64,000 nucleotides of DNA from an uncultured Poribacteria bacterium (GTDB lineage: Bacteria; Poribacteria; WGA-4E; WGA-3G), in the NCBI GenBank assembly GCA_958296135.2, contig CATQHZ020000001.1:2944001-3008000 (forward strand), given 5' to 3'. Both the position numbers and the translations under genes were made by a program. Position 1 is the stretch's first letter. Each line of letters begins with the position of its first letter. Below are positions 5,891 to 9,478 of the stretch, piece after piece. Below the pieces are notes generated by a model. The model was not told where the DNA came from. It saw nothing but the letters and a program-made list of their open reading frames with translations, and did no database searches.

Positions 5891-6826
5891 ATGAAAAACG
5901 AATGGGTTGTTTATGAAGGAAACGAGGGGCCCGGCAGGGGCAAACATATTGTCCTCGTCAGCGGCGATGAGGAGTATCGTTCGGAAGAAGCCCTGCCGAT
6001 GCTTGGAAAAATTCTTGCTACGCACCACGGGTTCCGATGCACCGTGCTGTTTGCCATTAACCCAGAAACCGGCGAAATCGATCCGGAGGTGCAGACGCAT
6101 ATTCCGGGGCTCCATCATCTCGATTCGGCGGATATGATGGTGCTGTTCACCCGTTTCCGCGAGCTGCCCGATGAACAGATGAAGCACATCGTGGATTACA
6201 CGAATGCGGGGAAGCCTGTCATGGGGCTCCGGACGGCGACGCACGCTTTCAGTTATAGCCGAAACCTCGATAGCCCCTACGCCAAATATAGTCATAATAG
6301 TGAGGCGTTCGATGGCGGCTACGGCAGGCAGGTGCTCGGCGAGACGTGGGTGAATCACCATGGGCACCACGGCAAGGAGAGCGCGCGCGGTGTCATTGAC
6401 GATGCGATGAAGGGACACCCTATCCTGAAAGGCGTTGCGGATATTTGGGGGCCTTCCGATGTTTACGGCATTACCGAGTTAACGGGCGATGCACAGGTGC
6501 TTGTTCACGGGCAAGTACTGGTAGGTATGGAGCCCACCGATGCGCCGAAACAGGATACCCTCACGATGCCGATGGTGTGGATTAAAACCTACACCGGCGA
6601 TGAAGGCAACACCTCGCGTATCTTCAACACAACGATGGGCGCGTCTGTCGATTTGGAGAGTGAGGGATTTCGGCGGCTTCTCGTCAACGGTTGCTATTGG
6701 TGCATGGAGATGGAGGATGCTATCCCCGAAGAAAGCGTTGTCGCTTACGTGGGCGAATACGCGCCGACGTTCTTCGGTTTCGGCACGTTTAAAAAAGGCG
6801 TTCGTCCCGAAGACCACGGGCTGTAG
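5891..6826 (+). CDS. ThuA-like (class I glutamine amidotransferase-like) domain protein
   Basis: HIVLVSGDEEYRSEE, GLRTATHAF, RIFNTTMG motifs; AGGAG RBS at 5876-5880. Confidence 0.85.
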   Translation: MKNEWVVYEGNEGPGRGKHIVLVSGDEEYRSEEALPMLGKILATHHGFRCTVLFAINPETGEIDPEVQTHIPGLHHLDSADMMVLFTRFRELPDEQMKHIVDYTNAGKPVMGLRTATHAFSYSRNLDSPYAKYSHNSEAFDGGYGRQVLGETWVNHHGHHGKESARGVIDDAMKGHPILKGVADIWGPSDVYGITELTGDAQVLVHGQVLVGMEPTDAPKQDTLTMPMVWIKTYTGDEGNTSRIFNTTMGASVDLESEGFRRLLVNGCYWCMEMEDAIPEESVVAYVGEYAPTFFGFGTFKKGVRPEDHGL

Positions 6827-7131
6827 TGCAGACTCGGGCGAGAACCGTCAGGTCCCGAGCCTGGCGCGGGACAGGCCCGCGCCCTACGGAGACGCGTTTT
6901 AATTTTCACCGCAGCGCGAGGGAAAACCTGTCCCTCGCGAGCAACTGAGGCGAAAGAGGACGTTCCTAGCCCCCGAAAATCGAGACACATCGTGATAAAA
7001 GCGGATTTATCGTGATAAACGCCAACATAAGTGCTATACGAAGTGTTTCGGTATGTCCTCCCGTCTACGGGAGATACAAACCTTTTGCCCACCTTATGAT
7101 ATAGGCGACACACAGCATACGGGAACACACG

Positions 7132-8211
7132 ATGAAAACTCATCATATTGCCTTGCGGCCCTCTGTGGCGCAGGTTCAACAATTCCATCAGCATGCCGGA
7201 TTCCGACGCTTCGTCTATAACTATGCTTTGTCCGATTTCAAAGCGGGCTTGACAGCAGGCGAATGGCGGAACGGCCGCACCCTGCGCGCTAGGTTTAATG
7301 CGGTAAAGGATACGCAGTTTGCGTGGCAGAAACGGCTCATCGCCCGCGTGGCATCACATGCCTTCGATGATTTTAACACTGCCTGTCAACGGTGGAAAAA
7401 CAAGCTGTCCAAGTTTCCGAAGTATAAGCGGAAGTCGGGTAAACAATCGTTTCGCGTTGACAATAAACGCAATGCGATAAAATGTGAAGGTAAACGGCTT
7501 TACCTGCCGAAGATAGGCTGGGTGCGGACGTTTGAAGCGTTGCGGTTCAAAGGTGACGTGATGCGCGTAGTGATTAAGAAGCGAGGCCCTCGTTGGTTTG
7601 CATCGGTGCTCGTCGAAACCACGCCCCGAGCCAAACCCGATTTACGCGGGTTGCCTCCCGTGGGTATCGATGTAGGTATCAACACCCTCGCCACTTGCTC
7701 TGATGGACGCACCTTTGGAAACCCACGCGCCTTGGCCCGTTATCAGCGTCAACTCCGCCGTGCGCAACGCGCCCTAAGTCGTTCAGTCTATCGCAGTCAG
7801 AATTGGTGGAAAAAGAAGGAACGTGTTGTCCGTATCCACTATCGTATCGCTTGCATCCGCGAAGACGCGCATCACAAAGCCAGCACGGCGATTGTGAAAG
7901 GTGTCTCAGCAATCGGTATCGAATCTCTGAACGTGAAAGGCATGATGAAAAACCGCCGGATTGCGAAGGCATTATCAGACGCAGCACTCGGGGGATTTCT
8001 TACCAAGTTAAAGACGAAGGCGGCGGCACTCGGCGTGCATATTGAGGAAGCATCTCAGTGGTTCGCTTCATCGAAGACGTGCAGTGCTTGTGGACATAAG
8101 AAGGATACCCTCACGTTATCGGAACGTGACTATCACTGCAGTGACTGTGGGTTGCGCATCGACCGAGACCGGAACGCTGCTATAAATTTAGAACCCTCGC
8201 CGCTGGTTTGA
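7132..8211 (+). CDS. tnpB: RNA-guided endonuclease TnpB
   Basis: N-terminal HTH (AGFRRFVYNYAL); RuvC VGIDVG / IGIESL / IDRDRNAA all intact; zinc ribbon CSAC...CSDC. Confidence 0.96.
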   Translation: MKTHHIALRPSVAQVQQFHQHAGFRRFVYNYALSDFKAGLTAGEWRNGRTLRARFNAVKDTQFAWQKRLIARVASHAFDDFNTACQRWKNKLSKFPKYKRKSGKQSFRVDNKRNAIKCEGKRLYLPKIGWVRTFEALRFKGDVMRVVIKKRGPRWFASVLVETTPRAKPDLRGLPPVGIDVGINTLATCSDGRTFGNPRALARYQRQLRRAQRALSRSVYRSQNWWKKKERVVRIHYRIACIREDAHHKASTAIVKGVSAIGIESLNVKGMMKNRRIAKALSDAALGGFLTKLKTKAAALGVHIEEASQWFASSKTCSACGHKKDTLTLSERDYHCSDCGLRIDRDRNAAINLEPSPLV

Positions 8212-8363
8212 CGGAGAGGAAAAACGCCTGTGGAGCTCGTGTCAGACCTCATTGTAGGCACACCTGGTGTGACTCGGAGGCGGTGAGTGCTGAAGCAGGA
8301 ACTTTAGAAATCGGACAGACTCATACGGACTTGTCCAGATATGTCTCGATTTCAGGGAACAGG
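8195..8363 (+). ncRNA. Putative TnpB omega-RNA (reRNA) scaffold; guide would start at ~8364
   Basis: Typical acgcctgtggag ... gaagcaggaa motifs between the tnpB 3' end and the right end; boundaries approximate. Confidence 0.65.
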
Positions 8364-8368
8364 TTAAA

Positions 8369-9478
8369 ATGGTTAACACGACGAGGGTTCAGCGCGCGCA
8401 AGCACGGATGAGACAGCAGGGCATCGATGCCTATCTCATCCTCACGCACGACGACTACGTCTACTTTTTCGGCGAAGACCGGTATCAGCCGCGCGCCATT
8501 ATCCCAGGGGAAGGCGTGCCTATTGTCGTCACCTTTACGGGTGAGGAAGCCGAGGTGCGAGCGTCCCTCGGTGTGGAAGATGTGCGGGTTTTCGGTTCCG
8601 TTGGGCAACAGATTAAAGACGTGGTGCAGGTGATGCGCCAGATGAGAGGCACGCAGCAGAAACTCACCATCGGAGTCCAGATGTGGTTTTCAACCCCGGC
8701 ATTCTTGCTGAATCTCTTCCAAAAAGCGAATCCACACGTCACGGTGGTGGACATTGCCCCGGTGATGGATGAGCTCCGTATGGTGAAAGATGCTGCCGAG
8801 GTCGCGCTCATGCAACGCGCGGCTGATATCGCGGCTATCGGCATGGAGACGGCGGTGAGAACGCTCGAACCGGGTGTTACGGAAAATGACGTGGCAGCCG
8901 AGGTGGAATACGCCATGCGGAAAGCCGGTGGACACGGAGTGGCAACACCGGTGTTCGTGAACTCCGGCATCCGGTCGGGCTGGCTGCACGGCACTGCGAC
9001 AGACAAACCGATTGAATCCGGCGACCTGGTAGTCCTCGATCTGGTGCCGCGTTACAAAGGTTACTGCGCGAACCTCTGCCGCGCGTTCGTCATTGGCGCG
9101 CCAACGGCGAAGCAGCAGGAGCTATTTGATACCTATAAACGCGCGCAGGCCGCGGGTATCACCGCACTGAAGCCGGGGGCGCGGATGCGTGACATCGATG
9201 CGGCAGCCAAGCAGGTTTTCGAGGAAGCCGGCTACGGCGCATTCTATGTTGCGGGTATCAGCCACAGCATAGGGCTCGGCTTTGAGGAAACGCCCGCGCC
9301 GACTATCCACCCCGGCGATTCGGGGATGCAGATTCGTGAAGGGATGACGGTGACAGTGGGGCACCCCGTGCTTTCTGTCCCCGGCATCGGCGGCGTACGG
9401 CTGGAGGATACGTTCCATATTGCGTCAGGTGAGGCGAAACCGCTGACAAATTTCCCGACAGCGTTTCGCATTGTCTGA
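8369..9478 (+). CDS. Xaa-Pro peptidase, M24 family
   Basis: Creatinase-N domain; LRMVKD..E, DLVVLD, HSIGLG, GVRLED motifs. Confidence 0.9.
   Translation: MVNTTRVQRAQARMRQQGIDAYLILTHDDYVYFFGEDRYQPRAIIPGEGVPIVVTFTGEEAEVRASLGVEDVRVFGSVGQQIKDVVQVMRQMRGTQQKLTIGVQMWFSTPAFLLNLFQKANPHVTVVDIAPVMDELRMVKDAAEVALMQRAADIAAIGMETAVRTLEPGVTENDVAAEVEYAMRKAGGHGVATPVFVNSGIRSGWLHGTATDKPIESGDLVVLDLVPRYKGYCANLCRAFVIGAPTAKQQELFDTYKRAQAAGITALKPGARMRDIDAAAKQVFEEAGYGAFYVAGISHSIGLGFEETPAPTIHPGDSGMQIREGMTVTVGHPVLSVPGIGGVRLEDTFHIASGEAKPLTNFPTAFRIV

Follow-up and report, generated by a model that had tools for sequence, protein, structure and literature searches.

Insertion sequences (IS) of the IS607 family have been described as carrying short subterminal repeats and as inserting over a 2-bp overlap without target duplication (PMC6188088, PMC4058570). 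For IS607 systems with a GG overlap, the transposon-associated motif (TAM) of TnpB was reported as GGG or TGGG (PMC10711439, bioRxiv 10.1101/2023.11.20.567912). Among the IS607 TnpBs characterised by Ren et al. (2024), the TAM was 5'-AGGAG in 18 of 22 strains and GAGGG in four (PMC11061315), a result that a 2026 review repeats (PMC13565253). The main text of Ren et al. mentions neither "ribosome" nor "Shine-Dalgarno", and among the main texts searched we found none that ties TnpB or IS607 to the Shine-Dalgarno (SD) sequence, the ribosome-binding site (RBS) or the start codon. The AGGAG TAM is therefore already published, and its identity with the RBS and the resulting insertion bias are not discussed in the literature searched. 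Here we describe a 1.4-kb TnpB element without tnpA at positions 6959/6960-8362/8363, as read from the sequence, of a 64,000-nucleotide stretch (the window) of an uncultured Poribacteria bacterium (assembly GCA_958296135.2, contig CATQHZ020000001.1, positions 2,944,001 to 3,008,000, forward strand). The element is a divergent tnpA-less member of the known IS607 TnpB group, and its target motif coincides with the ribosome-binding sequence. We consider it highly probable that it is a non-autonomous IS607-type element that enters at RGAG with an AG overlap, and thereby between the SD sequence and the start codon of a host gene.

To define the boundaries we compared the window copy with others in the same genome. 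Positions 6960-8362 read ACGTTCC...GGAACAG, with ...gcgaaaGAGG as the 5' neighbour and gttaaaATG, whose ATG opens an M24 peptidase gene, as the 3' neighbour, so that the junctions can be written ...cgaaagagg|acgttcc...ggaacagg|ttaaaATG. Collecting the copies of the source genome, as proposed in the initial annotation, gave eight with that of the window (1391-1597 bp, 84-95% DNA identity) and fixed their boundaries. All eight have the left end ACGTTCCTAG preceded by GAGG and the right end GGAACAG; all eight left flanks end in GAG, followed by G-ACGTT, and the base before GAG is a purine (R) in every case. The target letters are AGGAG in four copies, GGGAG in two, AAGAG in one and GAGAG in one. 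The base after ...AACAG differs among the copies (g, c, g, g, t, a, a, a), and a strict GG overlap is thereby excluded in five of the eight. GG can be read at the junctions only in the three copies whose right flank starts with G. The window copy is one of these, and only for this reason did the GG crossover core of the initial annotation appear to fit. AG, in contrast, is common to both junctions in 8/8 copies and is found in the empty sites as well. The GAGG-like TAM proposed earlier likewise gives way to RGAG, since the final G of GAGG is a letter of the element in five of the eight copies. The right boundary agrees with the branch points of assembly-graph contigs at 8362/8363 (four runs of one sample); no contig joint skipping the element was found in these runs, which carries no weight either way.

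Natural empty sites provide base-pair evidence that one IS607 branch recombines at AG inside GGAG. In two congeneric genomes (G001 and G002), whose flanks are 81-91% identical to those of the source genome, the element is absent at three loci. The uninterrupted mutS reads ...ctgaaaggag|aacgctATG and ...cataaggag|aacactATG, the gene for a thiamine pyrophosphate (TPP) enzyme ...ctacaaggag|acaccccATG and ...caataaggag|aaaaaccATG, and the macro-domain gene ...cgcggag|aaacaaaccATG and ...ccacggag|aaacaaaccATG. In all six sequences GGAG is joined directly to the right flank, that is, to the spacer and ATG. Insertion thus adds G-ACGTT...AACAG without target duplication and with a 2-nt AG overlap with the target. 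The target, and presumably the TAM, is RGAG (AGGAG-like), with its last two letters as the overlap dinucleotide. Of the remaining loci, the L005 site is not conserved in G001 and G002 and the L004 flank is absent there, leaving both uninformative. The search for empty-site alleles suggested by the initial annotation was thus successful at three loci and yielded none for the peptidase locus itself, because the M24 peptidase gene is absent from G001 and G002 and its other orthologues are only 69-76% identical. The empty site predicted earlier for the window copy, gaaaGAG|gttaaaATG, is nevertheless letter for letter the one that these boundaries give, and it has the same form as the real empty sites of the three other copies. 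Peptidase orthologues, searched in 40 relatives, start at the same Met, and GGAG(G) lies 6-8 nt upstream of the start in five of the six with a placeable start, the sixth having GGCG. An IS605-style target cut as GAGG| was also tried as a candidate and is rejected by the empty sites.

The features of the window locus, all on the + strand, are as follows.

6955..6958, +: host target AGAG, the remnant of the peptidase SD sequence (GAGG before insertion), from the left flanks of eight copies and the G001/G002 empty sites.
6959..7131, +: element left end and leader, with G-ACGTTCCTAGC, the motif GAAAATCGAGACA, two copies of the direct repeat ATCGTGATAAA and then a variable spacer to tnpB, from the sequence and an alignment of eight left ends.
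7132..8211, +: tnpB, intact, 359 amino acids (aa), with RuvC residues D180/E264/D346 and a zinc ribbon, from the open reading frame (ORF), Pfam and alignments.
8175..8362, +: candidate scaffold of the omega-RNA (reRNA), which shares its first nucleotides with the 3' end of tnpB, from RNAalifold on eight copies.
8361..8362, +: AG of the right end, where the overlap dinucleotide occurs for the second time, from the eight-copy junctions and the contig branch at 8362/8363.
8363..8382, +: putative guide-encoding flank of about 16-20 nt, including a 6-nt spacer and the peptidase ATG at 8369, assigned by position only, as in published TnpB systems (PMC10711439, PMC11061315).
8369..9478, +: M24 peptidase gene, intact, 369 aa, with Pfam matches Peptidase_M24 and Creatinase_N; its orthologues give the same start.

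To examine where the copies land, we used a fixed criterion, an ATG that lies 4-9 nt past the right end and starts an ORF of 100 aa or more. Six of the eight right ends are followed by such an ATG, and five of these precede Pfam-confirmed genes, encoding the M24 peptidase, an ABC ATPase, the TPP enzyme, the macro-domain protein and MutS, with the element between the SD sequence and the ATG. The sixth (L004) more likely interrupts a reading frame than sits at an RBS, the frame of 244 codons being continuous across the site. Expected fractions were computed on contig C1 of the source genome (5.01 of 5.19 Mb).

RGAG, all sites: 3.2% followed by such an ATG; P(>=5 of 8) = 1.7e-6.
RGAG, outside long ORFs: 8.4% followed by such an ATG; P(>=5 of 8) = 1.9e-4.
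AGGAG, outside long ORFs: 23% followed by such an ATG; P(>=5 of 8) = 0.019.

The family therefore favours ribosome-binding sites, as the initial annotation had suggested: 5/8 copies lie there, when 3-8% would be expected of RGAG sites. Because RGAG/AGGAG is itself the SD core, the element ends up between that sequence and the start codon, in the same orientation as the gene; as a consequence of recombination at AG inside GGAG, SD sequences are split from their start codons, with mutS among the affected genes. The same genome provides a control that is more telling than these fractions. It has 36 tblastn matches to the window TnpB, corresponding to about 30 or more genes, and these include two IS607-type families, B and C, with ends GCTCGGTGCAG.../...GCGG and an ordinary GG overlap (on contig C1, e.g. 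L009-L018 and L045). Families B and C belong with the element to a broad TnpB clade (44-54% aa identity), are mostly tnpA-less and have a similar right-end RNA region, but differ in their GG overlap, in left flanks ending in GG and in the right end ...GCGG, and only 4 of their 26 right ends (3/14 and 1/12) are followed by an ATG of the kind defined above. With both natural empty sites and a same-genome control, the case is well documented.

Several observations weigh against this reading. Against the longer motif combined with survivorship, that is, AGGAG outside long ORFs, the enrichment is only at P=0.019. Three of the eight copies lie away from an RBS: L003 and L004 appear to interrupt open frames, with 125 open codons ahead of the junction at L003, and L002 is an ambiguous third. 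Pfam matched none of the frames interrupted at these three loci, and that at L003 resembles HicB by impression only. The empty sites by themselves fit AG-overlap exchange and IS605-style insertion 3' of GGAG equally well. No tnpA with matching ends was found in the source genome, whose serine tnpA genes (L045, L046 and L047) belong to other families, and among 80 genome and 80 metagenome loci examined there is no relative above 41% identity. No Rfam family matches at E<=1 in window positions 6500-9000. Finally, we infer the TAM, the guide and cleavage from sequence and from analogy with characterised systems.

The first two of these points leave room for the explanation that there is no real RBS preference, with insertion at any RGAG and purging from genes and promoters leaving survivors at SD sites. 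We regard this as a tentative possibility. The motif is only 3-5 nt long, sites of the AGGAG type outside long ORFs are SD-like often enough to make five of eight copies a modest surprise, and for two or three copies the insertion site does fall within an open frame. However, a gene whose SD sequence is parted from its ATG loses predicted SD pairing, so that such insertions ought to carry a cost of their own, and yet this is the commonest location. The GG-overlap families, under the same selection in the same genome, show far fewer such sites. Moreover, unrelated genomes behave alike. RAGATH-18-type IS607 right ends (...TTTGAGTGGCAG), which occur in Firmicute genomes and metagenome contigs (L094-L135, L171-L233), lie 6-8 nt upstream of start codons in 7/11 genome loci, and of 20 distinct junctions from metagenomes 13 have an ATG 4-10 nt downstream. 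As a separate observation, Enterococcus copies with GG ends follow AGGAGGG and stand 6-7 nt before an ATG in two of three cases.

The ambiguity of the empty sites raises the second alternative, in which a Y1 (HUH) transposase would move a single-strand element of the IS200/IS605 type and insert it 3' of GGAG; the element would then be GACGTT...AACAG. In favour of it, the window TnpB matches ISDra2 TnpB of IS605 (E 4e-48) and the ISFba1 structure 8iaz of IS607 (E 4.7e-47) equally well. The surroundings of related tnpB genes speak against it. Among the distant relatives, a serine tnpA lies directly upstream of tnpB in 37/80 genome and 49/80 metagenome loci, as opposed to a Y1 tnpA beside tnpB in 2/80 and 4/80. 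A Y1 tnpA is found beside none of the eight copies, and no IS200-like Y1 gene adjoins any tnpB in the source genome. The ends point in the same direction. The left end consists of direct repeats without a strong subterminal hairpin (only a 6-bp AT hairpin is visible by eye), and the presence of AG at both junctions in 8/8 copies is what a 2-bp crossover predicts. Given the neighbouring tnpA counts and the end structure, we consider IS605-style insertion very unlikely. The element thus has the IS607 features of insertion without target duplication, an identical dinucleotide at junctions and target (AG, not GG) and short subterminal repeats; it lacks a serine TnpA of its own, which many distant relatives have upstream of tnpB, and it lacks the Y1 TnpA and the subterminal hairpins at both ends that mark IS200/IS605. 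These findings support the classification as an IS607-like tnpA-less TnpB element made in the initial annotation.

The missing transposase is a property of the whole family. tnpA is absent from all eight copies, and the window element has no space for a transposase gene. Because no tnpA is present in the copies and none with these ends in the genome, we file the element as a non-autonomous IS607 derivative, and since no relative above the identity given was found, the exact family has no known autonomous member. The nearest TnpBs outside the source genome are 32-41% identical. Firmicute relatives with a serine tnpA are laid out like the window element, with AGGAG ahead of the left end and ...GGCAG at the right end. 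Of the serine tnpA genes in the source genome, L045 (family C) is kept but frameshifted, with its helix-turn-helix (HTH) part in another frame. L046 (342-2058) and L047 (363-2061, minus strand) are near-identical IS607-type units in which a serine TnpA of 207-208 aa accompanies an unusually long TnpB-like ORF of 517-523 aa.

In contrast to the missing transposase, tnpB is well preserved. The protein matches the Pfam families OrfB_IS605, Cas12f1-like TNB and HTH_OrfB_IS605 and has two CxxC pairs (the zinc ribbon), and in alignments with ISDra2 TnpB and with the D371A ISFba1 structure 8iaz its residues D180, E264 and D346 fall on the catalytic positions. The retention of the RuvC residues noted earlier extends to all copies, with the TnpB ORF and the triad intact in 8/8. 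Over 28 TnpB pairs the median ratio of non-synonymous to synonymous substitutions (dN/dS) is 0.10, with dS of 0.11-0.58, and the TnpBs of the eight copies are under purifying selection.

The last ~190 nt of the element have a predicted fold conserved in the eight copies (42 pairs, three with compensatory changes by RNAalifold), with apical loops that differ in length among copies. The candidate omega-RNA would consist of nested stems and an 11-bp terminal stem, GAAATCGGACA/TGTC-CGATTTC, and end in ...AGGGAACAG. The sequence GAAATCG(A)GACA is found once in the left end and also on both arms of this terminal stem. This sequence and the direct repeat pair in the left end are the short subterminal repeats; long terminal inverted repeats are absent. 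RAGATH-18 (RF03064) did not reach its gathering score in the window element, while L089, L094, L095 and L105 scored 69-75 bits in the same scan. The guide would start right after ...CAG and run through the spacer and the ATG into the first codons of the host gene, in keeping with the earlier proposal, based on the position of the flank past the right end, that it spans the host start codon. The base past the right end varies and therefore probably opens the guide, in contrast to ISXfa1, where it belongs to the scaffold. A strict scan of the left end and leader, a weak tool, showed no sigma-70-like promoter on the + strand.

Compared with the ISFba1-type IS607 TnpBs, the closest described systems, the window element shares much. 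The target/TAM core is AGGAG there and RGAG here (as suggested by the target sites, AGGAG in 4/8 copies), the right end is ...CAG, the D-E-D triad is present and the elements lie just before start codons, as in the relatives counted above. In a phmmer alignment that allows only approximate mapping, the TAM contacts N61, K80 and N121 of ISFba1 TnpB correspond to N56, R72 and N111 and are thus kept or conservatively changed, whereas K83 and N122 are replaced by S75 and K112. Unlike the ISFba1 type, the window element has no detectable RAGATH-18 RNA and no tnpA, and its best-segment tblastn identity to loci with a RAGATH-18-type right end or match is only 32-36%. RBS landing is thereby extended to a divergent TnpB lineage, at most 41% identical to anything found, with a guide RNA outside the RAGATH-18 model. 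With canonical IS607, ISXfa1 and CboIStron the element shares the absence of duplication, the 2-bp overlap, short subterminal repeats and, presumably, a TAM equal to the transposase target (PMC6188088, PMC10711439, bioRxiv 10.1101/2023.11.20.567912), but it differs in its AG instead of GG overlap, the variable base past the right end, the strong RBS bias and the lack of an intron and of tnpA.

In the mechanism that we propose, the element is a tnpA-less, non-autonomous IS607-type insertion sequence whose only cargo is tnpB and the candidate right-end guide RNA. It entered by serine-recombinase-style exchange over the 2-bp AG common to the joined ends (...GGAAC-AG-GACGTT...) and the host RGAG site, and the transposase would have to act in trans or may have been lost. 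By analogy with characterised IS607 TnpBs, TnpB with the scaffold ...ACAG and about 16-20 nt of flank would cut an uninterrupted RGAG-plus-flank site. The right end has ACAG where the target has RGAG and, like CboIStron (TCGG vs TGGG), departs from the TAM at position -3; with this mismatch the occupied site would be spared, which would help to retain the copy. The host gene retains its ORF and loses most of its predicted SD pairing.

This loss was estimated from the predicted pairing between the 3' tail of the source-genome 16S rRNA, ...CACCUCCUUUCU, and the last 22 nt ahead of each start codon. For the window copy, predicted pairing weakens from -9.9 to -6.3 kcal/mol on insertion, and in the other four RBS copies it falls from between -7.4 and -12.7 to -4.9 kcal/mol, which is about background (random genome 22-mers have a mean of -3.9 kcal/mol, and 38% reach -4.5). 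The initial annotation had the right end rebuild the RBS. AGGT is indeed restored where the flank starts with G, in three of the eight copies including that of the window, but predicted pairing is weaker at each of the five RBS copies. The window copy does have a rebuilt AGGT, weak by predicted pairing, which is not a general property of the element end. How genes are translated after losing their SD sequence to a transposon is the question that this raises. A case in point is the copy L008 (G000:C1:1521762-1523152), between AAGGAG and the ATG of mutS, where predicted pairing declines to -4.9 kcal/mol, having been -12.7 without the element; the organism may be in a mutator state.

It is also conceivable, though we find it rather doubtful, that IS607 elements with an AG overlap specialise in colonising translation-initiation regions. 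The guide would then be made of host spacer, start codon and first codons, a single read-through transcript would serve as both omega-RNA precursor and host mRNA, and binding or processing by TnpB would compete with ribosome loading, tying host output (that of mutS included) to transposon activity, with outward transcription compensating for the lost SD sequence. That the elements are immobile and have been domesticated, with TnpB and/or outward transcription regulating or driving the downstream host genes, would fit the lack of a cognate transposase in the genome, the selection on the eight TnpBs, the five intact downstream genes and the lack of a terminator-like site between tnpB and the peptidase ATG (by a scan that is a weak tool), yet it is extremely improbable given that the RuvC triad is intact in all copies, unlike in the inactivated exapted homologues (PMC10705468), that the guide would be sense and not antisense to the mRNA, and that the insertions are absent from both congeners at 3/3 informative loci and are therefore recent.

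Two further observations concern sequences in and around the element. In four of the eight copies (L003-L006), an insert of ~190 bp is nested in the stretch from the left end to tnpB, at about element positions 89-305. Its start resembles the left end of families B and C (GGGCTCGGT..GCAGTG), and a contig branch is also found at window position 7047; it may be a miniature IS607 derivative inside another IS607. Directly to the left of the window element, at 6902-6942 (and at 6838-6890), lies a GC-rich palindrome like the repetitive extragenic palindromic (REP) sequences, which occurs at 85-100% identity in at least 17 places in the genome. The genome also has two Y1_Tnp (PF01797) matches, neither adjoining a tnpB, and these may be REP-associated transposases.

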